Shown in pieces: positions 6,590-55,905 of a stretch of 64,000 bases of DNA. How positions within the stretch are numbered: the stretch's first letter is position 1; the number at the start of each line of letters is the position of its first letter. Position numbers and translations under genes: made by a program. This DNA is from Thermoanaerobaculia bacterium (lineage in GTDB: Bacteria > Acidobacteriota > Thermoanaerobaculia > UBA5066 > Gp7-AA6). The notes beneath the pieces are model-generated. The model was not told the origin of the DNA. It saw only the letters and a list, made by a program, of their open reading frames with translations, and searched no databases. Location: positions 2,608 to 66,607 of the forward strand of contig JAYRMU010000017.1 in NCBI GenBank assembly GCA_041912555.1, in the 5' to 3' direction.

Positions 6590-8323
6590 ATGACCGGGCG
6601 GGCCGCTGCGGCCGCGCTCTTCGCCGCCGCCGCCCTCTCGGCCGCTCCCCGCGAAAAGACGGTCGTCGTCTCGCCCGAGATCCACGCCGCGATCTCGGAC
6701 GCCGCCGAGATCGTCCTGCTCGTCCGGCCGCTTCCGGGCGAGAGCATGGACGCCTTCGTCAAGCGCGTGACGGACGACCCGAAGACCAAGAAGCAGATCC
6801 GCGCCCTGAACGGCGGGTCCCCGCGCTTGAAGCGCGGGCGCTACCTGCGCATCCCCTATCGGCTCCTCTCGGGCAACTACCGCCGGATCGCCATCGAGGC
6901 CCTCTTTCCGGCCGACCGCGCCACGGCGGGCGGATGGGAGCACCGCGTGACGGCGCCGGCGGGAAAGCCCGAGAGCCTCTGGCGGATCGCCGAGTGGTTC
7001 ACGGGCGACGGTTCGCGGTACCGGGAGATCCGGCATGCGGGAGCGATCGCCTCCCTCGAGACGCGGGTCGGCCAGGTCGTGGTCGTCCCGGAGCGATGGC
7101 TGACGTCGCCGTTCCGCGAGGCGGTCGCGGCCGCCGCCCCCGCGCCCGAGTCCGAGGCGCCGAAGCTCGAATACGGGTCCGACGAGCGGGGCCGTTACGC
7201 GATCTACCGTCTGAAGAAGGGCGAGGCGCTGTACTCGGCCGTCGTCGTGCGCTTCACCGGACGGCTCCACGCGGAGGACGTCAACGCGAAGGCCGCCGAG
7301 ATCGCGGCCTTCAACGGGATTGCCGACGTCCACGCGATGCCGGTCGGCTTTCCGGTCCGGATCCCGGTGGCGGACCTGTCGCCCGAGTTCCGGCCGCCCG
7401 ACGATCCCGAGCGGATCGAGGAGGAGAAGACGCTGCTCGAGGCGGCCCAGTTCGCCAACAAGGTGCGCAGCGCCGACCTGTCCGGCGTCACCGTCGTCCT
7501 CGACGCGGGGCACGGCGGCCGCGACACGGGCGCCATCGTGGACGGGCTGGAGGAAGCGGCGTACGTCTACGACATCGCCTGCCGGGTCGAGCGCCTCGTG
7601 CGCGCCCGCACCCGGGCCCGCGTGGTGCCGACGGTCGGCCGCGACACGCCGTGCTCCGGCGCGCTGGTCGAGGCCGTGGGCAATTCCCGCAGCGCGCGGG
7701 TCCTGACGACGCCGCCCTACGCGATCGAGGATGCCGCCGTCGGGGTCAACTTCCGCTGGTACCTCGCCAACTCCATCTACCGCAACGTCGCGAAGACCGG
7801 GGGCCAGGAGGACCGGACCGTCTTCCTGTCGCTGCACGCCGATTCGCTGCATCCGGCCGTGCGGGGCACGATGGTCTACGTGCCCGGCGAGAAGTTCCTG
7901 AACGACTCCTACGGCAAGTCGGGCGAGCCGTACGAGTCCCGGCGGGAGGTCCGCGAGGCGCCCCGCGTCTCCTTCACCCGCAAGGAGAAGATCGAAGCCG
8001 AGGGGATCTCGCGGGATCTCGCGGAGCACATCGTCGCGGCGTTCCGCGCGGCCGACCTGCCGCTCCACGCCTTCGAGCCGGTGCGCCGCAACGTGATCCG
8101 GTCGGGACGGGAGTGGGTGCCGGCGATCCTGCGCTACAACCGGATTCCGGCGCGCGTTCTCGTGGAGGTCTGCAACCTGAACAACCCGGACGACCGGCGC
8201 CTCCTGCGCACGCGCGCCTATCGCGAGAAGGTGGCCGGAGCGCTCGTCGAGGCCCTCATCGACTTCTACGGAGGAGCGGCGTCCGCGTCCGTGCCGGTGT
8301 CCGCCTCCGGGACGAAGCCCTAG
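6590..8323 (+). CDS. amiC: N-acetylmuramoyl-L-alanine amidase (Amidase_3) with two LysM domains and a signal peptide
   Basis: VVLDAGHGGRDTGA ... FLSLHADS ... VEVCNLNNPDD are Amidase_3 motifs. The N-terminal half has LysM-like segments. Confidence 0.8.
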   Translation: MTGRAAAAALFAAAALSAAPREKTVVVSPEIHAAISDAAEIVLLVRPLPGESMDAFVKRVTDDPKTKKQIRALNGGSPRLKRGRYLRIPYRLLSGNYRRIAIEALFPADRATAGGWEHRVTAPAGKPESLWRIAEWFTGDGSRYREIRHAGAIASLETRVGQVVVVPERWLTSPFREAVAAAAPAPESEAPKLEYGSDERGRYAIYRLKKGEALYSAVVVRFTGRLHAEDVNAKAAEIAAFNGIADVHAMPVGFPVRIPVADLSPEFRPPDDPERIEEEKTLLEAAQFANKVRSADLSGVTVVLDAGHGGRDTGAIVDGLEEAAYVYDIACRVERLVRARTRARVVPTVGRDTPCSGALVEAVGNSRSARVLTTPPYAIEDAAVGVNFRWYLANSIYRNVAKTGGQEDRTVFLSLHADSLHPAVRGTMVYVPGEKFLNDSYGKSGEPYESRREVREAPRVSFTRKEKIEAEGISRDLAEHIVAAFRAADLPLHAFEPVRRNVIRSGREWVPAILRYNRIPARVLVEVCNLNNPDDRRLLRTRAYREKVAGALVEALIDFYGGAASASVPVSASGTKP

Positions 8324-38251: not shown

Positions 38252-38330
<79 letters not shown>

Positions 38331-38438: not shown

Positions 38439-39575
38439 TCATCGGGCCTCCTTCTCCTGCTCGGCCTGCTCGTCCTTGCCGGTCAGGAAGTGGACCGTCG
38501 CCCGGAGTGCCGCGCGGGAGTCCTTCGTCGTGGGGATGTTGTAGCGGTCGAACACCGCCCGCGTCTTGTGGCCCGTGATCCCCATCGCCACGATCGCGGG
38601 GACTCCGGCGCGGGTCATGTTCGTGATCGCGGACCGGCGGAAGTCGTGGAAGTGGAGGCCGGGTTTCCCGGCGGCCGTGCAGGCCCTCGCCCACCGCTTG
38701 CGCCAGTCGCCCAGGGGGCGGCCGTTCTCGTGGAACACGAAAGTCGAGAGCGACGGGCCGTCCGGCGTCTCGAACCGGCGAGCGGCCTCACGGCGCGCGA
38801 TCACCTCCGCGAGCTCCGCCTCGAGCGGCAGCACCCGGCCGCGACCGTTCTTCGAGGTGTAGAGCCACGCCTCGCCGTTCTTCGTGTCGATCCGGTCGAA
38901 GGTGAGGCCCTCGACCTCGCCACGCCGCCAGCCGGAGCGGTAGGCGAACAGGCAGACGTCGGCGTGGACGCTCGGGGCGCCGTTGACCCCCGAGAGCGCC
39001 CGGTACAGCTTCCAGAAGTCCTCCTCCTCCACGAACCCCTGCCGCACGTTGTCCACGTGGGCGAGCTCGAAGTAGGGGACCCGATCGACCGAGATCCGCT
39101 TCTTCTTCGCCGCGAGGATGTAGGCGGAGCGGAGGATCTCGAAGTAGTGATCGACCGTCGAGAGGTCCCGCCGCTTGCCCGAGACGGTGCCGTCCTTCCT
39201 CGGGGCCCGGTCCTCCGCCAGCCACGCCGTCCGCGCGTGTTCGAGGGTGGCGGCCGTGACCTCGACCGCCTTCAACGGCCCGAGGGCGGCCGAGATGATT
39301 TTCCGTTGAGGGTCGAACGTCTCAAGGGACTTCTTCCCGCGCAGGACGAGGCTCTCACGGTAGGCGGTCAGAAGGTCCTCGACGGTGAGCGTGGCCTCCT
39401 CGGCGTAGGCGAACCGGCCCGCGGCGACCTCTTTCCGAAGGGCGCGCCAGGCCTCGAGGGCCTCGGACTTCGTGCGGAACGGTCCCCGCTTGAGACGGGG
39501 GAGGTGCTTGCGGGGGACGAAGCACCACCAGCTGTTCCGATCCTTCGGCTTGAAAACTCCGCCGTCGCCCCTCAT
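38439..39575 (-). CDS. int: Tyrosine-type site-specific integrase (island, adjacent to attL/tRNA)
   Basis: 378 aa with the C-terminal catalytic region HDFRRSAITNMTRAGVP...GH.T...YNI (R-H-R-Y). Confidence 0.85.
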   Translation of the reverse strand: MRGDGGVFKPKDRNSWWCFVPRKHLPRLKRGPFRTKSEALEAWRALRKEVAAGRFAYAEEATLTVEDLLTAYRESLVLRGKKSLETFDPQRKIISAALGPLKAVEVTAATLEHARTAWLAEDRAPRKDGTVSGKRRDLSTVDHYFEILRSAYILAAKKKRISVDRVPYFELAHVDNVRQGFVEEEDFWKLYRALSGVNGAPSVHADVCLFAYRSGWRRGEVEGLTFDRIDTKNGEAWLYTSKNGRGRVLPLEAELAEVIARREAARRFETPDGPSLSTFVFHENGRPLGDWRKRWARACTAAGKPGLHFHDFRRSAITNMTRAGVPAIVAMGITGHKTRAVFDRYNIPTTKDSRAALRATVHFLTGKDEQAEQEKEAR

Positions 39576-39736
39576 CGCCGCCCCCTTCTCGCCTTCCGGG
39601 TGAGGAACCGTTCGAGGGCCTCGATCACGATCGAGCGGAAGTCGGTGTCGTCCTCCGCCGCCCTGATCCGCGCACGGCGGTGGAGGTCCGCGGGCAGGAT
39701 GATCGTCGTTTTCTTCCCGGGTCCCGGTTTCGTCAT
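39572..39736 (-). CDS. Ribbon-helix-helix (CopG/Arc-like) small DNA-binding protein
   Basis: 54-aa MTKPGPGKKTTIILPADLHRRARIRAAEDDTDFRSIVIEALERFL...; ATGA overlap with int. Confidence 0.55.
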   Translation of the reverse strand: MTKPGPGKKTTIILPADLHRRARIRAAEDDTDFRSIVIEALERFLTRKARRGRR

Positions 39737-39762: not shown

Positions 39763-40167
39763 TTACGGCTGCGCCGTATTGCCTCGGCCCCGACATTTTA
39801 CCGCGTAGGCTTCGAGGTCGCCACGGTCGAACCGGACGACCCCCGGGGAGGGGCGCACCACGGGCAGCTTTCCGGCGGCTGCAAGGCGTGTCACGGTGCT
39901 TTTCGAGACGCGGAGGAGCGCGGCGGCCTCCGAAGCGTCCACGAGGCGCGAACCGGGGGCGCTCGAAGGCTCGGGCGCGGCTGGGGCGGCAGCGGCGGCG
40001 GCCGTCAGGGCGGCGTGGCGGCTCGTCAGGAGCGCCCCGGCGCGGAAGGCGAGCCCGGACAGCTCGAGGGCCTCGGCCGCGGTGAGGTCCCCGGCGGAGG
40101 CCTCGACCTCCGAGAGGAGCGCGACCAGGCGGGGGAGCCGGTCCGGCGGAACAGCGACGGGCCTCAT
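39763..40167 (-). CDS. Excisionase-family HTH DNA-binding protein
   Basis: C-terminal LLRVSKSTVTRLAAAGKLPVVRPSPGVVRFDRGDLEAY matches excisionase/MerR-like HTH. Confidence 0.6.
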   Translation of the reverse strand: MRPVAVPPDRLPRLVALLSEVEASAGDLTAAEALELSGLAFRAGALLTSRHAALTAAAAAAPAAPEPSSAPGSRLVDASEAAALLRVSKSTVTRLAAAGKLPVVRPSPGVVRFDRGDLEAYAVKCRGRGNTAQP

Positions 40168-40526
40168 CGCCTCGGCCGCCTTCCGGTTCCGGCGAGGTCG
40201 GCCGCGAACTCGCGCGCGACCGCCGTCTCATCGTCCGAGGTCCGCACCTCGGGCGGTGCCGGGACGAAGGACGGGTCAGGCTTCTTTTTCTCCCGGTAGA
40301 GCCCCGAGAGCCCGAGCCGTTCGGTTTCATCGAGTACCAGGGGCGGGCGTCCGGCCATGAACTCGGCCACCCGGAGCCGTGCGGCCTCGATCTGCTCGGG
40401 CGTCCGCCGCGCCTTCGGCGTCGGCGCGTCGTCTGCCGGACGAGCGCCGGGACGGGAGCGCCGAACCTTGCGACCGAGGTTCCAGAGCATCGAGCCGGTG
40501 CCGCGGCCGTAGATGGGGCGGCTCAT
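40164..40526 (-). CDS. Hypothetical island protein (120 aa)
   Basis: The internal start MSRPIYGRG... has a good SD (aggaag). Composition is diverse. There are ATGA overlaps on both sides. Confidence 0.45.
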   Translation of the reverse strand: MSRPIYGRGTGSMLWNLGRKVRRSRPGARPADDAPTPKARRTPEQIEAARLRVAEFMAGRPPLVLDETERLGLSGLYREKKKPDPSFVPAPPEVRTSDDETAVAREFAADLAGTGRRPRR

Positions 40527-40771
40527 GTTTCTTCCTCTACCGCCTCGGGCCGCCGGACGCTGTACGTCGCCCGGAGACGTGCAACAGCTTCGGCGTTCGC
40601 CTTGCGCGCGGCCTCCCACCGCTGGCGCGTGGCTTCATCTGGCGGAGTCAGGAGCCGCACGAACGGGCGCCGGGAGGGGCGTGGGGAGGGGTCAGCCGCC
40701 AGAACGCGCGTCCGCCCGCCCGTCGAAGCGGCGTGGGGCGTCTCGTGGCTCCGCGTGGTCGTGTTCTTCAT
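40523..40771 (-). CDS. Hypothetical island protein (82 aa)
   Basis: MKNTTTRSHETPHAASTGG...; 4-nt overlaps with both neighbours. Confidence 0.4.
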   Translation of the reverse strand: MKNTTTRSHETPHAASTGGRTRVLAADPSPRPSRRPFVRLLTPPDEATRQRWEAARKANAEAVARLRATYSVRRPEAVEEET

Positions 40772-42267
40772 CGGGCGGGGCCCTTCTCGATCCGCGACCG
40801 ATTCGCGGGGCGCATGAACCGGCCGCACGCGGGAGGGGGAGCAGAGGCAGGCCCGGGGACCGTAGGACTACCTACCTCGCTATCTGGGAATTTCGCGCAC
40901 GGCCCGCTTGAACTCGACAGGGAATTTCCGGCACGGCCCGCTTGAGGATTCTCGCTTGTGGAAATCGCCGTGTTCGGCTCCGCGAGCGGCGTCTCCGTGT
41001 CCCTTTCCGACAGGGAATTTCCCGCACGGCCCGCTTGAAGATTCTCGACGCCGATCGCCTTGATGAGGCTCCCCACCCGGCGCAGCCCGTGCTTCCCGTA
41101 AGGCACGATTTCCGCCAGCCAAACGACGCGCGGCAGTAGCTCGAGGAGGACGCGCTCGGGCGGCAGGCTGTCCGGTTTCATCCCGAAGGCCTCGAGGACG
41201 AGCCGCACGTCCCGCCGGGCGAAGGACCGGCGCTCCCCGACCTTCCACTTCGGGCAGGGCTCGTGCATCACGCGCTCGCCCCGGAGACAGAAACAGGGGA
41301 GGGCGTAGTAGAGGGGGACCGCTCCGACCTCGCCGTCCACGTCCTCGAAGAAAATCCGAAGCGTGCATTCGCCCCACCCGAGGTGGAGGTGGCGCGGCTC
41401 CCCGACCTCGATAGCGCGAAGGCGGCGGACCTCTCGAGACTCTGCTGCGGCGGAACCCGGACGGGGAAGTCGGGGAAGCCTCGTCGCCCATGCGACGATC
41501 CGCTCGACCTCGTCCGTTGAGAGGTCACGGTCACCCCGCTTGATGCGGGCGCGTTTCTCGAGAAGGTCCGCCCGGATTTCGTGGGCGTCGTAGCCGAGGT
41601 TCCAGAGCGAAGCGGCCCGCTTCGAGAGGTAGTCGTGGCGCTCGCCGGGGGTCAGGGCCTCCGGCTCTCGATCTGCGGCCTGTAGAACCAGCCGCACGGC
41701 GGCGGGATGAGCCGCGAGAACCTCGGCCAGGGTGAACCGCTCACCGCTGCCCGGCCGGAACTCCACGAGGAACGGCTCGCCCTTGTAGTGGAGGAACCCC
41801 GGCAGGCGCATGACGCGCGGCCGATCGTGGACGGTCCCGTCCGAGCCGTAGTGCGCGGCGATCTGCCTCTGCGCGGGACCGAACAACGCGAGCGGTTCAC
41901 CGTGGACGAGGGACCAGTAGGCGTGCGGGCCGCCGCGTGAGAGCGTCTCGAAACTCGGGTCGAGCGCATACTTCTCCGGCGCTCCCTGATCGAAGTCCGC
42001 GAACAGAGCGCGGAGCCCGACGATATTCGCGGCCTTGCGCCCGCGAAGGTCCGTCTCGTTGACGGTGACGAAAATGCCGACGCCCCGGGCGTTGAGGTTC
42101 GCCAGCGTCTCGACGTGCTGTTCGAGCGTCCCGTGAAGGATGCGAGATAGCGTCGAGCGCGTAGAGCCGCCCGGCTTGCGGTCATCGAACGTCTGGAAGG
42201 TCACGCGCGCGGAGGCCGAGCCCGTGAGGGCCTCGAGGAAGGCGCGGGCGGCGGCGGGGTCGATCAC
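40768..42267 (-). CDS. Prim-pol / RepB'-like replication primase; C-terminal ~100 aa overlaps iteron-like repeats
   Basis: N-terminal VTFQTFDD...GSTRS...NARGVGIFVTVNETD...LFADFD matches the bifunctional primase-polymerase fold of P4-alpha/plasmid RepB' type. The GTG start overlaps the upstream stop. Confidence 0.6.
   Translation of the reverse strand: MIDPAAARAFLEALTGSASARVTFQTFDDRKPGGSTRSTLSRILHGTLEQHVETLANLNARGVGIFVTVNETDLRGRKAANIVGLRALFADFDQGAPEKYALDPSFETLSRGGPHAYWSLVHGEPLALFGPAQRQIAAHYGSDGTVHDRPRVMRLPGFLHYKGEPFLVEFRPGSGERFTLAEVLAAHPAAVRLVLQAADREPEALTPGERHDYLSKRAASLWNLGYDAHEIRADLLEKRARIKRGDRDLSTDEVERIVAWATRLPRLPRPGSAAAESREVRRLRAIEVGEPRHLHLGWGECTLRIFFEDVDGEVGAVPLYYALPCFCLRGERVMHEPCPKWKVGERRSFARRDVRLVLEAFGMKPDSLPPERVLLELLPRVVWLAEIVPYGKHGLRRVGSLIKAIGVENLQAGRAGNSLSERDTETPLAEPNTAISTSENPQAGRAGNSLSSSSGPCAKFPDSEVGSPTVPGPASAPPPACGRFMRPANRSRIEKGPAR
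40886..41047. repeat. Three ~34-bp direct repeats gggaatttc[c/g][c/g]gcacggcccgcttga..ttctcg (iteron-like)
   Basis: Copies at ~40886, ~40920 (tandem with the first) and ~41013. They lie within the 3' end of the primase ORF. On translation they give the repeated peptide QAGRAGNSLS twice, and a third copy in another phase. Confidence 0.55.
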
Positions 42268-42704
42268 TCGGGGAACGGCTCCGGGTGGATCAGGGCGATG
42301 AGGCCGGAGCGGTGGACCTCGGGGATATGCGACGGGGCGTGATAAACGAAACCGAGCCGCACGAGCCGATCGCTGCACCGCAGGCAGATCAGCCGCCTGT
42401 CGCCCGCGTACCGCTCCGCCTCATCGGGGCCGTACTCCCACGCCATACCGCGCCGGAGGCAGACCTCGCACCTCGGGCGCTCGGCCCCGGCGCTCCACGA
42501 CTCGTTCCGCCGGACCCACGCGACGACGGCGGCCTTCCAGTTTTTCATCGGCTGGCGACCCATCTGCCACCCGACGCCCTCGTAGTAGGCGACGAAGTAG
42601 TCCGCGTCGATTTCGAGGCCGCGCTCGTCCGCGAAGGCGTGAACCTCCTCCGCCGTGGGCGGGACGAACTCGACGGCGGCCTTCGCCTTCGGCGCGCGAC
42701 TCAT
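42264..42704 (-). CDS. Hypothetical zinc-ribbon protein (CxxC...CxxC)
   Basis: 146 aa with ...CEVCLRRG...CLRCSDR...; 4-nt overlaps with both neighbours. Confidence 0.5.
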   Translation of the reverse strand: MSRAPKAKAAVEFVPPTAEEVHAFADERGLEIDADYFVAYYEGVGWQMGRQPMKNWKAAVVAWVRRNESWSAGAERPRCEVCLRRGMAWEYGPDEAERYAGDRRLICLRCSDRLVRLGFVYHAPSHIPEVHRSGLIALIHPEPFPE

Positions 42705-45887: not shown

Positions 45888-45915
45888 CGAGTCCTCCTTC
45901 GGAAGTTGCCGCGCT

Positions 45916-46326
45916 CTACGAGGTCGGCGTGCGAGTGGGCGCAGCCGTGATCGTCTGCGTCGGCCTGATGAAAGGCGTCTGGGAGGGCGTAAAAGTCGGG
46001 GTCGGCGTCCACGGCGTGGTGGTGTTCGTCGGCGTGCGCGTGGCCGTCTGCGTGGGCGTGTTCGTGATCGTGGGGACCTTCGTCGCGGTGGCCGGGATCG
46101 GCGTGTAGGTCCTCGTGTTGTACGGCGTCGGCGTGTTCGTCTTGACGCCGGACGGGTGGCCGGGGAACACGTCCGAATACCCGAAGGCAGGGGTCTGGGT
46201 GGGGGTATTCGTGGCCGTGGGCGTGTTCGTCCGCGTGTTCGTGGGCGTGTTCGTCTGTCCCGAGGCGAGCGAAGCGACGAGGATGAGCGGGACCACGAGG
46301 AGCGCGATGCGGGGTAGGTTCTTCAC
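45916..46326 (-). CDS. Secreted Thr/Pro-rich low-complexity protein (TNTPT repeats)
   Basis: Signal peptide MKNLPRIALLVVPLILVASLASG, then ~110 aa dominated by T, P and N. This is unusual in a 70% GC genome and argues for real coding. Confidence 0.55.
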   Translation of the reverse strand: MKNLPRIALLVVPLILVASLASGQTNTPTNTRTNTPTATNTPTQTPAFGYSDVFPGHPSGVKTNTPTPYNTRTYTPIPATATKVPTITNTPTQTATRTPTNTTTPWTPTPTFTPSQTPFIRPTQTITAAPTRTPTS

Positions 46327-48408: not shown

Positions 48409-48531
48409 GGGACGAGATTCTATCATGAGCCGGGTTCTGAGATCAGGCCCGTCCCGCCGAGCGAAGGGGGCGGTCTAGCGCCCGAGGGCGGCCCAGACGT
48501 ACAATTCGTGTCGAAACCGAGGAGAAAAATT

Positions 48532-49270
48532 ATGAATCGCGCATCCTGTCGGCACTTGCTCGGGATGGTCTCCGTGTTCTTGTTCGTTGCAGGTTCAGCT
48601 TCGGCCGCGAACCCCGCTCCGAAAACCTACGGAACTCAGAACGTCACGTGGTATCGAGTCTCCGCGGCCGAATTCGCACCCGCGAACGGCACGGTTCCGA
48701 GTACCTCGTGGAATCCGTCCTCAAGCTATGCCTTCCGAACGTGGGGAACGGGTGGCTGGTTCTTCGCTGCTCCGCACCTGCCCGCGGGTGCCCTTCTGAC
48801 AGGCCTTGAGCTGGACGCGTGCGACACGAACGGCAGCGGGAACCATCTGGATCTTCAGCTTTATGACTGCGACCGCTTCTCGAACTGCAACGCGGTGCCG
48901 CTGACCTCGGTCTCGACGTTCGACCTCGGGCCGGGTTGCGGAAGCGTGAGTATCGACGTCACCGGCGCGAACTACACCGTGGACAATCAGGCTCACCAGC
49001 TGCTCCTCTGGGCGAACATGGCGGCCACCGACGGCACGAACCAGATCGCAGGGGCAGCCATCGGGTACGTGCTACAGGTGAGTCCCGCGCCCGGGTCGCC
49101 CACCTTCAACGACGGTCCCCACGAACGATATCGGCTTTCAATACATCGAAGCCCTCGCCGCCTCTGGCATCACGGGCGGATGCGGCGGAGGCAACTACTG
49201 CCCGGACAACCCAGTCACGCGTCGGCAGATGGCGATCTTCCTTGCGAAGGCGCTCGGATTGTCGTTCTGA
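48532..49270 (+). pseudogene. Secreted protein with C-terminal Cys-containing SLH-like domain, interrupted by a +1 frameshift near 49114
   Basis: Strong SD (aggag) and signal peptide MNRASCRHLLGMVSVFLFVAGSASA. Frame A runs to ...TFND, then the SLH-like domain DIGFQYIEALAASGITGGCGGGNYCPDNPVTRRQMAIFLAKALGLSF continues in the next frame after a TGA-blocked stretch. Joining the two frames gives TFNDVPTNDIGFQYIEAL, which matches the protease repeat SFPDVPSSNPFYPFVENL. Confidence 0.6.
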
Positions 49271-49357
49271 CGGATCAGGCCTTCTGACGGCAAGGACTCG
49301 AGCCGGGCGGGAAAACCCGGCTCGAGGTCTTTCTGGCCGCGTAAAATCCGCGGCACC

Positions 49358-49723: not shown

Positions 49724-50419
49724 TCACGCGGCCCCCGGTCCGTCGTTGCCCGCGTCCTCGAGCGACCGGGTCGCCGCCGCGTCCGCGCGGAGATAGCGGC
49801 GGACGGCCGCCGGGGTGCGGAGCCACCACCGCCACCGGAACCGGAGCCACGCGGCGAACTCGCACGGCGCGTGGAGGTACGGCCACCACGTCCCACGCTT
49901 CGCCCACCCGTACCGGCGTTCGAGGTGACGCTCGAGCGGGCGGAGCGCGGTGTGGTAGAGCCAGAGCGGGTGCAGCTTGATCTTCGCCCGCTGCCACCAC
50001 ACCCAGAGCGGGCGGTGGGGCCGTACCAGGCGGAGGGCGAGGAGGAGCGCCCAGAGCAGAACGACCGGACATTCGCACGGCACGCGGCCGACGATTCCCT
50101 CGACGTCGTTCGGGCAGTCGCGGCCGTGGAAGGCCTGCACCTCCACGCCCTCGAACTCGAGGGCGTCACCGAGGTCGCCGTCCTCGTGGAGCCGCGAAAC
50201 CGTCAGCACGAGGTCGGCGGCCTCGGGGATGCACCGCGTGCTGTAGCCCTCCGCCACGCCGAAGCGGCCATCTGGCCACGTGAAAACGTACCGCTGGTAG
50301 CCGTCCACGAGGACCTTGCCCCGAGCGAAGGCGACCGAGGCCTCGAGCCCCTCGCGGGCCGAGAGGCCGCGCGTGGTCTGGAATTCCACCGATCCGAAAA
50401 GGTCCCGCTTTATCCCCAT
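49724..50419 (-). CDS. Hypothetical membrane protein with Trp/Arg-rich C-terminus (231 aa)
   Basis: A ~120-aa N-terminal domain, TM helix VVLLWALLLALRLV, then a W/R/H-rich tail (12 Trp in 100 aa). Confidence 0.5.
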   Translation of the reverse strand: MGIKRDLFGSVEFQTTRGLSAREGLEASVAFARGKVLVDGYQRYVFTWPDGRFGVAEGYSTRCIPEAADLVLTVSRLHEDGDLGDALEFEGVEVQAFHGRDCPNDVEGIVGRVPCECPVVLLWALLLALRLVRPHRPLWVWWQRAKIKLHPLWLYHTALRPLERHLERRYGWAKRGTWWPYLHAPCEFAAWLRFRWRWWLRTPAAVRRYLRADAAATRSLEDAGNDGPGAA

Positions 50420-52617
50420 CCCTCACCCATTCCCCCGCGTAGAGAACCGCGGGCGCTCTCGAACGGATCGCTTCCCTCGGCGCGATACGGGTCCACGGTG
50501 AGCCGTTCGCCCCGGTGGCCGAACCCGCCGTGATCTGGCACCGACCCGAGTCCTAGCGCGTTCGTTCCAGGCTTCGGGATCGAAGCCACGAGGCCGCGCC
50601 CGAGGGCCGCGTCGGCCGTGATCGCGCCCTTGCCGCGGCGGCCCTCGGCGTAGCAGAGAGCCATCTGGCGGAGCGCGTCCACAAGGTCATCCGCCTGCCC
50701 CTTGAAACGCCTCTCGCCCTTCGTGGTCGTGGCCTCCGAGGTGTGACCGAGCAGGAGCGTCGTGAGCGCGATCTTCGTCTCCGAGGCTCCGCCGTCGCCG
50801 GCGGGCAGCGAAATGCGCCCGGCCTGCAGGAGTTTCTCGAGGACCCTCGTACCGAATTCTTTATTCGAGAGGCGGTGCGGCGTGGGCTCGCCCCCGACCA
50901 GGCGGTCCGGGTTCAGGAGTGGCTCGCCCGTCGTCACGTCGATCGCGTCCGTTTTTTCCGAGAACGCGCGGGCGCTCATGCGGGAAGCGAGATCGAGGGG
51001 CTCGCGGCAGATCGGGCAGTAGCGGAAGGAGTCGCCCTCGGTGAGGAACGAGACGGCACCCGCGCCCGCGTTGCCCGCGTCCACCGAATACCGGACCTCG
51101 TGGCCGAAGGCGTGGTCGAGGCGCGCGATTATCACGGCCTGCCGCGAGTAGTTGAAGTAGCGGAGCCGCACCCGCGCGAGCATCGAGAGGTGGCCGCCGA
51201 GGTCCCGAAAGTAGGTGAGCTCCGAAGCGTCCACGCGCTCGCCCAGGTCGAACCCCGCGAGCAGGTCCGGGTTCACGAAGTCCGCCGTCGATGGCATGAG
51301 TCCCGCGATGCGATCGGCCAGGCCCACGGCGTCGAACGGGACGCCGCGCTCCGAGACGGTGACGTCCTCGGAGTGGTCGCCCTCGAGCGTCTCGCCCTCC
51401 GGGGCGGGCCTCGAGGCGCGGAGCGCCACCGCTTCCTTGTCCGTGTCGATCTCCGCCGTGACGAAGCGGTAGGTCGGCAGGAATTTCAGGCACGGCCCGA
51501 GCAATTCGATCCCGAACACCGAGCGATTCGGAGTACCCCAGCCGCCGAGAACGTTGCTGATCCAGCCGTCGCTTTTTTCGCCACCATAGGCCGCGGACAG
51601 CTCGGCCGCGATCTGCTCGTCCCAGAGAGGGCGCGGGAGGTCCATCTTCGTGATCGTGAAGCGGCGGAAACGCGGGGCCTCGCCCTGCTCCGCCTCCGCC
51701 GCGACCGCCGCCGAGTCGTAGGGGATCGCGCGCTCGTAGTGCCGGTAGAACTCCCCGCTGTAGTCCGAGTCCGGGGTCGAATAGATGCGGAACACACACC
51801 CCGGATCAGCGGCCCTCCAGAGCTCGCTCCATTGCTGCGGATTTTTAGCTTTAACGGCCTCGTCAAACCGGATGGTCGGCGCGTAGTGGCCGCCACGGAG
51901 CGAGCGGCCGTCGTGCGCGACGAGGCGAATCTCGAAGCGGGCGCCGTTTTTAAAAACCTTCGAGCGGTACGGCTTGATGTGGCTCTCGATCACGCCGCCG
52001 CCGATGTTCGGGTTCTGCGCCAGCTGCGCCTCGAGCTCGGCCCAGATCGGGGCGATGGTCGTGTCGCTGTCCGCGATGATCGCGGAGTGGACGCCCGCCC
52101 CGAGCGTGTCCACCTCGAACAGCGTCCCGAGAACGATGTCGCGCGTCTTGCCTACGGCGGAGGCCGCGCACACCAGGACGCTGCCCCGGAGGTTCGCAAG
52201 CTGCTGCTGGATCGGGTACAGGGTCCACGGGTCCCCGGCCTGCACCCACACCTTGCCGGTCCGGTCTTTCAGCGAGGACCGCTCGCGGAGGTTCACGGTC
52301 GCCCACGCCACCACGTCCCCCGGGTTTACGCCGTCGCCCGCCGCGATGATGCGGTCGAGGTCCCGCCAGGTCAGCGGCACCTTCACGACGCCGCCCTCGG
52401 GCGTGGGCATCGGCCAGATCGGAACCCCGCGCTCGATGTGTTCGGGCCGAATCCCGAGGCTCGCCATCCCCCGGGCCACCGTCTCCGAGGGAAGGAGCGA
52501 CGGGGGCCCGCCGAGGTTCTCGGCCGCCGCCTTCTTCCTCGGCCCGCGCGTCGGTTTCCTGCTCGCGCCCACCTTCGGTTTCCTGCTCCTCCCCGTGGCC
52601 GTCCGCTTCGTGGTCAT
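50410..52617 (-). CDS. terL: Phage terminase large subunit-like ATPase/nuclease (735 aa)
   Basis: An adenine-binding YxxQ-like LYPIQQQ lies ~15 aa upstream of the P-loop AASAVGKT. A Walker-B-like AIIADSD follows, then a large C-terminal domain. It sits downstream of a terS-like gene with an ATGA overlap. Confidence 0.55.
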   Translation of the reverse strand: MTTKRTATGRSRKPKVGASRKPTRGPRKKAAAENLGGPPSLLPSETVARGMASLGIRPEHIERGVPIWPMPTPEGGVVKVPLTWRDLDRIIAAGDGVNPGDVVAWATVNLRERSSLKDRTGKVWVQAGDPWTLYPIQQQLANLRGSVLVCAASAVGKTRDIVLGTLFEVDTLGAGVHSAIIADSDTTIAPIWAELEAQLAQNPNIGGGVIESHIKPYRSKVFKNGARFEIRLVAHDGRSLRGGHYAPTIRFDEAVKAKNPQQWSELWRAADPGCVFRIYSTPDSDYSGEFYRHYERAIPYDSAAVAAEAEQGEAPRFRRFTITKMDLPRPLWDEQIAAELSAAYGGEKSDGWISNVLGGWGTPNRSVFGIELLGPCLKFLPTYRFVTAEIDTDKEAVALRASRPAPEGETLEGDHSEDVTVSERGVPFDAVGLADRIAGLMPSTADFVNPDLLAGFDLGERVDASELTYFRDLGGHLSMLARVRLRYFNYSRQAVIIARLDHAFGHEVRYSVDAGNAGAGAVSFLTEGDSFRYCPICREPLDLASRMSARAFSEKTDAIDVTTGEPLLNPDRLVGGEPTPHRLSNKEFGTRVLEKLLQAGRISLPAGDGGASETKIALTTLLLGHTSEATTTKGERRFKGQADDLVDALRQMALCYAEGRRGKGAITADAALGRGLVASIPKPGTNALGLGSVPDHGGFGHRGERLTVDPYRAEGSDPFESARGSLRGGMGEGWG

Positions 52618-54419: not shown

Positions 54420-55445
54420 CTACTCGACCGGCTCGAGGCCGAGCGGCGACGAGAGGGCCGCGCTCGGACCCCACGGCGCGACCCGGTTCGCCTTGCCCGC
54501 GATCGCCGCTTCGCTCCCGAGCAGGATGTAGCGGCGGGTCGTCTCAAGCGACCGATGCCGAAGCCACGCCTGAATCTCGAGGAGCGGGACGCCCCGCGCG
54601 TAGAGGTGCGTGGCCCGCGAGTACCGGAGCGCGTGTCCAGAGAGCCGCCGGTTCCCGGCCTCGATCCCGGCCGCGGCCATGCGTTTCTCGAGGACCGCGC
54701 GAAAACCGTTCGCCCCGATGCCCGCCACCGAGTCCCGCGTCGTGGGGCCGAACGGCGGAAAGAGGGCGGCGTGTTGAACCCCGGCCCGCTCGAGCTCCGC
54801 GAGGTAGTCCCGCACGAGGCCATCGACCTTCGGGTCCACGCGCCTCGTGACCGGGGCGGCGGAGTGCTTCGCCTCCCTGATCGTGAGAAACGAGCCGTTC
54901 TTTCGGACGGCGTAGTCGGCCAGGCGAAGGGCTCCGATTTCCCCGACGCGGAGGGCCTGCATATACGCGAGGCCGAGGGCCGCGCGATCGCGGGCCTCGG
55001 TGAGGAGCCACACGCGAGCGCGAAGGCGGAAGAATTCGTCCGGCTCGTCCGGGCCCTGAACCGGCGCGGCCGTCCGGGCCTCGAGGATGAGCCGCCCGAC
55101 CTCCGCCTCGGTGAACACGTCGATGCGGCGGCGTTCGCGGGCCTTCCACACGACCATGCCCTTCGAGGGGTTCGCGGGCGTGAGGCCGCGCGAGCTCGTG
55201 AACTCGAAGAACACCGACAAGGCCGTCAGGCGTCCCCGGCGGGTGGCCTCGGACAGTCCCGCGTGGGCCAGCTTCGAGGCATAGCGGTCGAGGTCCGCCA
55301 GCGTGACGCGGGAGAAGTCCTCGACCCCGAGCCGCCGCCGAAGGTCCCGCACGGCGTCCGCGTAGGTCGTGGCGGTGTTCTCGGCGTTGCCGCGCGTGTC
55401 CACCAGGTACGCGACGAAGGCGGAAAGGATCTCGTCGGCGGTCAT
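54420..55445 (-). CDS. Second tyrosine recombinase (XerC/D-like integrase) near attR
   Basis: N-terminal SAM-like domain MTADEILSAFVAYLVDTRGNAENTATTYADAVRDL and C-terminal ...HALRYSRATHLYARGVPLLEIQAWLRHRSLETTRRY (R..H..R..Y). Confidence 0.8.
   Translation of the reverse strand: MTADEILSAFVAYLVDTRGNAENTATTYADAVRDLRRRLGVEDFSRVTLADLDRYASKLAHAGLSEATRRGRLTALSVFFEFTSSRGLTPANPSKGMVVWKARERRRIDVFTEAEVGRLILEARTAAPVQGPDEPDEFFRLRARVWLLTEARDRAALGLAYMQALRVGEIGALRLADYAVRKNGSFLTIREAKHSAAPVTRRVDPKVDGLVRDYLAELERAGVQHAALFPPFGPTTRDSVAGIGANGFRAVLEKRMAAAGIEAGNRRLSGHALRYSRATHLYARGVPLLEIQAWLRHRSLETTRRYILLGSEAAIAGKANRVAPWGPSAALSSPLGLEPVE

Positions 55446-55858: not shown

Positions 55859-55905
<47 letters not shown>

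Follow-up and report, generated by a model that had tools for sequence, protein, structure and literature searches.

In a 64,000-nucleotide stretch of a Thermoanaerobaculia bacterium genome (assembly GCA_041912555.1, contig JAYRMU010000017.1; hereafter the window, whose positions are used throughout), an island integrated in a tRNA-Pro gene carries a primase gene that ends in a cluster of short direct repeats. The evidence supports the view that these repeats behave as a DNA-level cis element and not as a protein repeat, because they are read in two codon phases, their invariant blocks enclose a variable spacer, and a fourth, distant site shares just the 20-bp motif. The repeats very probably form a functional, protein-binding element. 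They may further be the element-specific iterons of the island's replication origin, a reading that we favor over its rivals and to which we give an even chance, since DNA-constrained repeats sit where protein conservation ends, relatives carry arrays at the equivalent position, and precedents are known.

We searched the whole window for GGGAATTTC-SS-GCACGGCCCGCTTGA, which is present at 40886, 40920, and 41013 on the plus strand. The full 26-nt core of the clustered copies, GGGAATTTCSSGCACGGCCCGCTTGA, spans 40886 to 40911, 40920 to 40945, and 41013 to 41038; start-to-start distances are 34 and 93 nt, and all three copies fall within 162 bp. No further core match was found elsewhere in the 64 kb with up to 3 mismatches, and the 3 observed matches compare with 0 expected from 100 dinucleotide-preserving shuffles; the repeats described in an earlier note on this DNA are real and far beyond chance. 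Copies 2 (40915 to 40954, spacer CG) and 3 (41008 to 41047, spacer CC) are extended units, similar to one another over 40 nt at 95% identity. Copy 1 (40886 to 40911, spacer GC) has only the 26-nt core in common with them. The repeat described earlier as 34 bp long does recur three times where it was reported, but its ttctcg extension is missing from copy 1. Tandem Repeats Finder made no call on the cluster because just two units are adjacent. All three copies lie, as had been noted, inside the 3′ coding region of the primase open reading frame (ORF; 40768 to 42378, minus strand).

A search of the whole island for the consensus beyond the cluster, a check that the earlier note had proposed, recovered a fourth exact match to the 20-bp motif. 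This solitary site 4, GGAATTTC-AG-GCACGGCCCG, lies at 51480 to 51499 on the plus strand, about 10.4 kb from the cluster and in the same orientation, in the middle of a 735-residue ORFan (50410 to 52617, minus strand) that is well supported as a gene (GC content at third codon positions [GC3], 0.89). In total, GGAATTTC-NN-GCACGGCCCG has four exact matches in the window against 0.02 expected. When the four sites were aligned, 18/18 specified bases were invariant, in two blocks, and the 2-nt spacer was different in every site (GC, CG, CC, and AG); beyond the two blocks, the flanks of site 4 showed no likeness to those of the cluster. Two invariant blocks with a variable spacer and unrelated flanks have, to judge from the sequence, the look of a bipartite protein-binding site, and such a pattern is not expected from neutral decay of a duplication. 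The 53-bp spacer that separates copies 2 and 3 was considered as holding a degenerate extra copy, but this was set aside, the similarity being too weak (23/36, with gaps). The same spacer holds a DnaA-box-like 9-mer, ATTTCCACA (40957 to 40965, minus strand; 8/9 to TTWTCCACA), which is at most weakly suggestive of an origin, as there are 3 such 8/9 matches in 64 kb against 2.6 expected.

Codon phase distinguishes conservation of the DNA word from conservation of a peptide. In the primase frame, copies 2 and 3 begin at codon position 3 and are translated as (E)N(L/P)QAGRAGNSLS (copy 2, ENPQAGRAGNSLS; copy 3, ENLQAGRAGNSLS), whereas copy 1 begins at codon position 1 and is read as SSGPCAKFP. The repeated peptide QAGRAGNSLS that had been attributed to the repeats is thus encoded by copies 2 and 3 and not by copy 1, which is one codon phase off. 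Because the phase of copy 1 differs from that of the other two, it is the DNA word that is conserved and not the peptide.

The annotated primase gene (40768 to 42267, minus strand; GTG start at 42267) encodes a 499-residue protein (P0001, NCBI) made up of a RepB-type archaeo-eukaryotic primase (AEP) domain, a PriCT-like segment, a rare C-terminal domain, and a tail; the mechanical ORF, 40768 to 42378, has 536 codons, of which the first 37 have a GC3 of 0.43. The N-terminal part has 464 homologues at E ≤ 1e-5 (best E = 7e-60), and most of those listed carry PF16793 (RepB_primase). The protein itself matches PF16793 at 19.1 bits, below the 24.3-bit cutoff, and a PHROG "DNA primase" family matches it at 1e-12. 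Its DFD, GGPHAYW, and RVMRLPG motifs align with the AEP motifs (DxD, sGxH, and the R/h-D region) of the solved PrimPol structure 6zp9, although the overall match is weak (E = 0.2). By sequence, the N-terminal part appears to be a RepB-type AEP primase, which refines the description "prim-pol-like" used in the earlier note. The primase-domain homologues span only the first 30 to 56% of the ORF, up to the PriCT-like segment, and end near residue 300. Among annotated plasmids and phages, the only matches were distant ones (28 to 37% identity) that fell in the N-terminal primase domain; the C-terminal domain had none.

The C-terminal domain (41032 to 41427, minus strand; ORF residues ~318 to 449) is almost unique in public data. 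An exhaustive search of 1.84 billion representative proteins found the protein itself and exactly two relatives, P0121 (245 residues, E = 4e-23) and P0122 (195 residues, E = 3e-9); a word-indexed search with the C-terminal 237 residues had returned no matches, not even the protein itself, and a profile search started from the domain added no further relatives. One His and three Cys residues are invariant across the three sequences, and marginal RING-finger-like matches cover the Cys segment. The domain is fused to an AEP primase here, whereas both relatives are free-standing proteins from two other integrative elements. It is our candidate for the protein that binds the repeat sites, a proposal we make tentatively. 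Winged-helix domains in the C-terminal segments of P0002, P0003, and P0017 were also considered; we do not claim them, Pfam being empty there.

Downstream of this domain, the primase ORF ends in a tail of 93 codons (40771 to 41049, minus strand) that holds the repeats, is not conserved, and yielded no homologue in our searches. Relatives of the C-terminal domain can be aligned to about residues 449 to 467: P0122 can be followed as far as the start of copy 3 and itself stops ~10 residues further on, and P0121 aligns weakly across the copy 3 peptide and then diverges, so that copy 3 overlaps the final residues alignable with P0121. The GC3 of the tail is 0.68, within the range of its six frames (0.63 to 0.68), none of which is preferred; the gene body has values of 0.79 to 0.91. 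The tail thus bears no signature of selected protein sequence, and conserved protein sequence appears from the alignments to stop where the repeats begin. The earlier proposal that the conserved primase ends early is upheld in these respects, with homologues of its primase domain stopping near residue 300 and a tail of noncoding-like composition. Likewise, alignment with homologues revealed no conserved C-terminal domain covering the repeats, the finding that the earlier note had said would speak against its interpretation. Its suggestion that the tail is a read-through or annotation artifact did not hold: the frame stays open as far as 40768, and its TGA overlaps the ATG of the next gene, orfA (ATGA). 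For these two reasons, the tail and its repeats are very probably translated.

These observations bear directly on the possibility that the repeats have no cis function and either arose by recent slippage or duplication within a tail that is disordered or are a true peptide repeat of low complexity in the primase. Disordered tails tolerate duplications, the near identity of copies 2 and 3 gives the same 13-residue peptide bar one L/P change, and P0121 can be weakly aligned through the copy 3 peptide. We nevertheless consider this explanation very improbable. Copy 1 lies in another codon phase and yields no common peptide, differences between copies are confined to the 2-nt spacer, and the tail is without codon bias. 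In addition, site 4 matches at 18/18 bases within unrelated flanks in an unrelated gene 10.4 kb away, and relatives have element-specific repeats of their own at the same place.

The last point emerged from a comparison with related loci. The motif was not found in multiple copies at any locus in genome, viral, or metagenome collections, and a scan of their contigs for GGGAATTTCNNGCACGGCCCGC returned only scattered single matches in unrelated taxa (Fibrobacter, Collinsella, and others). With no multicopy locus there was no sister island in which covariation between site and protein could be followed; we therefore checked relatives for repeats of their own at the equivalent position. The set comprised the loci of seven primase-domain relatives and two of relatives of the C-terminal domain (L012 and L013), and all were subjected to a uniform scan in which 9-mers repeated within 250 bp on either strand were summed per 200-bp window. 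In 3/7 primase loci, including the two closest, the top repeat peak of the locus was at the primase 3′ end (L019, L020, and L017), and the repeat sequence was each element's own. L019 is the closest homologue (54% identity); its 10-kb locus has a top peak that begins at the primase stop codon and consists of 8 copies of CGAAGATGCTCA in both orientations amid A/T runs within 148 bp, where ~1 is expected in the locus. In L020, the second closest, from a Thermoanaerobaculia metagenome-assembled genome, the final 40 codons of a primase-helicase ORF contain the top peak (2439 to 2504), with 3 direct and 3 inverted GCGTCCAAS 9-mers translated as ASNASNASK...LDAMDALDA; this gives an independent case of an ORF tail in which repeats are translated. 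In L017, two top peaks flank the primase stop codon: the last 55 codons hold two 18- to 20-nt copies that are 35 nt apart and differ in codon phase, and more repeats follow past the stop. In a fourth locus, L018, we also observed 5 direct copies of GGAAGTGACAA together with inverted copies (1371 to 1807) in a 1.7-kb noncoding region upstream of the VapE and primase genes.

The two loci that encode free-standing relatives of the C-terminal domain show related arrangements. The L012 gene ends in a nonconserved tail (GC3, 0.65 versus 0.84 in the body) that contains a tandem repeat of 14 nt and, as here, overlaps the next gene through an ATGA, and in L013 the domain gene is followed by a 250-bp gap of 45% GC holding two short tandem arrays. 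The L012 tail contains CCACTGCCCGCTTGA, which matches 13/15 bases of the half-site in the window, in the opposite orientation (0.2 expected at up to 3 mismatches); this likeness is suggestive but not significant and may reflect shared ancestry of the site or chance. L012 also carries CGCGGGCCGAACCGG where copy 3 would correspond by homology, and an inverted partner of it follows 282 nt downstream; these L012 sites, the half-site match included, are at 1174 to 1188, 1315 to 1329, and 1471 to 1485.

We next considered the genes on the other side of the repeats. From the primase to the integrase, the genes run on the minus strand and are tightly packed, with overlapping stop and start codons: orfA (40523 to 40771; 82 residues, no family), whose ATG overlaps the primase TGA and which opens the excision-side string; orfB (40164 to 40526; 120 residues, no family, weakly related to the gene after the domain gene in L012); a 134-residue HTH_17/MerR-like DNA-binding protein of the excisionase type (39763 to 40167); a 54-residue Arc-like ribbon-helix-helix protein (39572 to 39736); and a tyrosine integrase (38439 to 39575) adjoining tRNA-Pro. 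The main rival to an origin is an operator, at which the HTH_17/MerR-like protein, the Arc-like protein, or the C-terminal domain protein would control a promoter of orfA-orfB-xis-arc-int and so set excision and integration, not replication, with site 4 as a second operator. The cluster lies 115 to 276 nt upstream of orfA, the first of five packed genes ending in the integrase, and two small DNA-binding proteins of the island are of types for which repeated sites are frequent targets. Repeats in L012, L013, and L019 also precede small genes, HTH_17, and integrase genes, and those of L013 occupy an AT-rich, promoter-like intergenic gap. However, the ATGA overlap between primase and orfA suggests cotranscription and translational coupling from upstream, and the sites, being asymmetric direct repeats that all point the same way, differ from typical operators of dimeric helix-turn-helix proteins. 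In L017, moreover, both the integrase gene and the HTH_17 gene are upstream of the primase, and the array is not upstream of xis-int; the array therefore belongs with the primase, not an xis-int promoter. No sigma-70-like promoter was found in 40300 to 42600 or in the equivalent L012 and L013 regions, which counts as weak evidence, the search having little power as the promoter type of the host is not known. We judge an operator role unlikely.

The island as a whole spans ~17.6 kb and is bounded by attL (38285 to 38330, plus strand), which is the 46-nt 3′ part of tRNA-Pro(CGG) (gene, 38254 to 38330), and attR (55859 to 55904, plus strand), a direct repeat of it with one mismatch. Its remainder consists of ORFans and a second, Xer-like tyrosine recombinase with a SAM-like N-terminal domain (54420 to 55445, minus strand) beside attR, which places a recombinase at each island end. 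The strongest local-repeat peak of the island is an 18-nt-period repeat in 8 copies (45908 to 46266) within an ORF at 45916 to 46326 (minus strand), which is probably coding; the primase-tail cluster is the second highest. A low-GC cargo gene at ~48497 to 49287 (plus strand) encodes a signal-peptide protein (MNRASCRHLLGMVSVFLFVAGSASA...), and the 40-mer with the highest AT content in the island (GC, 0.38) precedes it. The stretch at 48.4 to 49.1 kb, the island's most AT-rich, was considered as an alternative origin and rejected, since it is a low-GC plus-strand signal-peptide gene without iterons. Elsewhere in the window, a tRNA-Sec gene (6790 to 6857, minus strand) indicates that the host uses selenocysteine.

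The gene content of the island also bears on whether the sites could be a centromere-like partition, packaging, or transfer recognition site, bound by a protein of the island or of a helper element. Clustered asymmetric direct repeats with one distant copy do resemble centromere-like or packaging-recognition arrays, a ribbon-helix-helix protein is encoded, and an island made up mostly of ORFans leaves room for other functions. Among its genes, however, we recognized no ParA/ParB or other partition gene, terminase, relaxase, coupling-protein, or capsid gene, and in relatives the position of the repeats is tied to the 3′ end of the primase gene. Such a role appears improbable.

The type of primase domain raised one more explanation, namely, that the repeats are single-strand initiation (ssi) sites, hairpins that a primase recognizes, read here directly by the RepB-type domain. 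In plasmid RSF1010 (IncQ), a separate protein, RepC, binds the iterons, and the primase acts on the hairpins ssiA and ssiB (PMC8567376). The island resembles this system in that its primase catalytic domain is of the same type (RepB_primase region; RepB′ in RSF1010) and in that the RSF1010 origin contains direct-repeat iterons of ~20 bp; furthermore, RepB′ initiates on two 40-nt oriV elements (PMC8567376), and the extended unit here is likewise 40 nt. On the other hand, neither the six single-strand 40-mers (z = +0.5 to +1.1) nor the whole 231-nt region (z = +0.8 and +1.0) folded better than shuffles, ssiA and ssiB are mutually inverted whereas the sites here are all direct, and no homologue of RepC or RepA was detected. 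A structured RNA found no support either, with no Rfam match at E ≤ 1 in 40300 to 41500. The ssi explanation has hardly any probability left, and we rejected the hairpin, RNA-structure, and protein-repeat readings alike.

Several known systems offer precedents for an origin at this position. In the Staphylococcus aureus pathogenicity islands (SaPIs), rep is followed immediately downstream by iterons, to which the C-terminal domain of Rep binds (PMC9371898). Like SaPIs and other phage-inducible chromosomal islands, the element here is integrated, bounded by tRNA/att sites, and of the excising kind, and it presents a primase, sometimes fused to an initiator, followed by element-specific repeats at the gene's 3′ end, with relatives differing in repeat sequence. 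The details differ. SaPI iterons are 5 to 6 nt long, in 6 to 12 copies, and form two opposed sets around an AT-rich center past the stop codon, whereas the repeats of the island are three direct copies of 26 nt, all oriented alike and contained in the ORF tail, without a marked AT-rich center; opposed sets are seen in L019 and L020. SaPI Rep, moreover, is a helicase with a winged-helix C-terminal domain, and here no helicase was detected and the C-terminal domain gave no significant fold match.

In phage lambda, the O gene itself contains the iterons, which are translated, and O gains residues when there are extra iterons (PMC7466680). Translated iterons within the initiator's own ORF correspond to the repeats in the nonconserved primase tail. 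The lambda iterons, however, are in the middle of O, between two functional domains and adjacent to an AT-rich region, and those of the island are at the extreme 3′ end; lambda O is also not a primase and is unrelated in sequence to the island primase. The alpha protein of satellite phage P4 combines a primase with a C-terminal DNA-binding domain that recognizes short repeats, and its sites are found at ori and crr, several kilobases apart. The cluster and the solitary site 4 may be compared with that pair. Alpha nonetheless has a primase of a different type and includes a helicase, and its octamer sites occur in both orientations and outside the tail of the alpha gene; no homology between alpha and the C-terminal domain of the island protein was detected.

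The gene order offers a further comparison. Primase, small genes, xis, and int beside a tRNA is the order found in SLP1-like and pSE211-like elements (PMC2440964), integrative and conjugative elements of actinomycetes (AICEs), and the island matches it. The prim-pol of AICEs has a replication role that is described as unknown in a review, and some of these elements are without iterons (PMC2440964). Unlike them, the island has no detectable FtsK-like transfer gene or other AICE hallmark.

Given these precedents, we propose the following mechanism for an origin. The binding sites would carry the bipartite motif GGAATTTC-N2-GCACGGCCCG, extended to GGGAATTTC-N2-GCACGGCCCGCTTGA in the clustered three. 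The cluster, at the junction of replication and excision genes, would be the iteron part of an origin used after the island has excised and circularized. An initiator encoded by the island would bind the direct repeats, the best candidate being the primase's own rare C-terminal domain, encoded directly before the sites, and its binding would nucleate the opening of nearby DNA. The fused RepB-type AEP primase would then lay the primer, and a helicase and polymerase of the host would complete replication; a host helicase is invoked because none is recognizable in the island. The sites would at the same time be translated as a composition-neutral, nonconserved tail, and site 4 would be a second binding point for the same protein, acting by looping or handcuffing as crr does in P4. 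We infer the origin function from position and analogy, and likewise infer that a protein binds, which protein this is, and what site 4 does. A stronger form of the proposal, in which the C-terminal domain is an unrecognized family of origin-binding initiators that reads a bipartite 20-bp iteron, and in which the distant site provides two-site (ori and crr-like) control of replication, is doubtful at present.

Measured against iteron origins in general, the cluster has direct repeats of one motif of the 17- to 22-bp class (three 26-nt copies in 162 bp), constraint at the DNA level, and a location in the last 93 codons of a replication-protein gene, as is likewise the case at or near this gene in L017, L019, and L020. 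A number of findings weigh on the other side. There is no strongly AT-rich unwinding element beside the repeats: the lowest 40-nt GC near them is 0.55, compared with an island mean of 0.70 (standard deviation, 0.07), and is not among the 25 lowest windows, although a weak unwinding element could still be present because the genome is ~70% GC. Only three clustered copies exist, irregularly spaced; no multicopy match to the motif and no close relative of the element turned up in the collections; and the cluster occupies a possible operator position. Neither a helicase nor a recognized initiator fold was found. The C-terminal domain matched no Pfam, NCBIfam, or PDB family, its structural models were poor (predicted local distance difference test score of 42 with the full alignment and 58.8 with a trimmed one, in 1/5 models), and a fold search with the model returned nothing at E < 0.27; the top entries, the OB-fold DNA binders PrgE, PriB, and SSB, are a lead only, suggested by the model. 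Finally, the relatives are not uniform. The main repeat cluster of 3/7 (L016, L018, and L022) lies elsewhere than at the primase 3′ end, with L016 and L022 showing none there in the uniform scan; L021 has only its second peak there, and a direct repeat search at that position found nothing; and in L018 the iteron field lies 2.5 kb upstream of the primase gene, so a repeat field is not always 3′ of the primase in this clade. The iteron-type origin put forward in the earlier note thus retains the DNA-level constraint, the position in the primase tail, and the relatives' own arrays in its favor, with function drawn by analogy and without a strongly AT-rich stretch.

That the origin of an integrative element can lie at the 3′ end of its initiator or primase gene, or within that end, is an established principle, as in lambda, the SaPIs, and P4. 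What is unusual here is a bipartite 20- to 26-bp motif in a translated, composition-neutral ORF tail, next to a domain without a known fold that is almost unique in public data; beyond the points that follow, the arrangement repeats the known principle and opens no new question. For annotation, primases of this clade suggest a rule, which is that cis repeats are located at the 3′ end of the primase ORF or extend into it. In GC-rich genomes, such a repeat-bearing tail lengthens the apparent ORF past the functional protein and yields spurious "peptide repeats." If the proposed reading is true, it would pin down the origin and the likely initiator domain of an ORFan-filled integrative element in an uncultured bacterium of ~70% GC, and would make the rare C-terminal domain a candidate for a new DNA-binding module.

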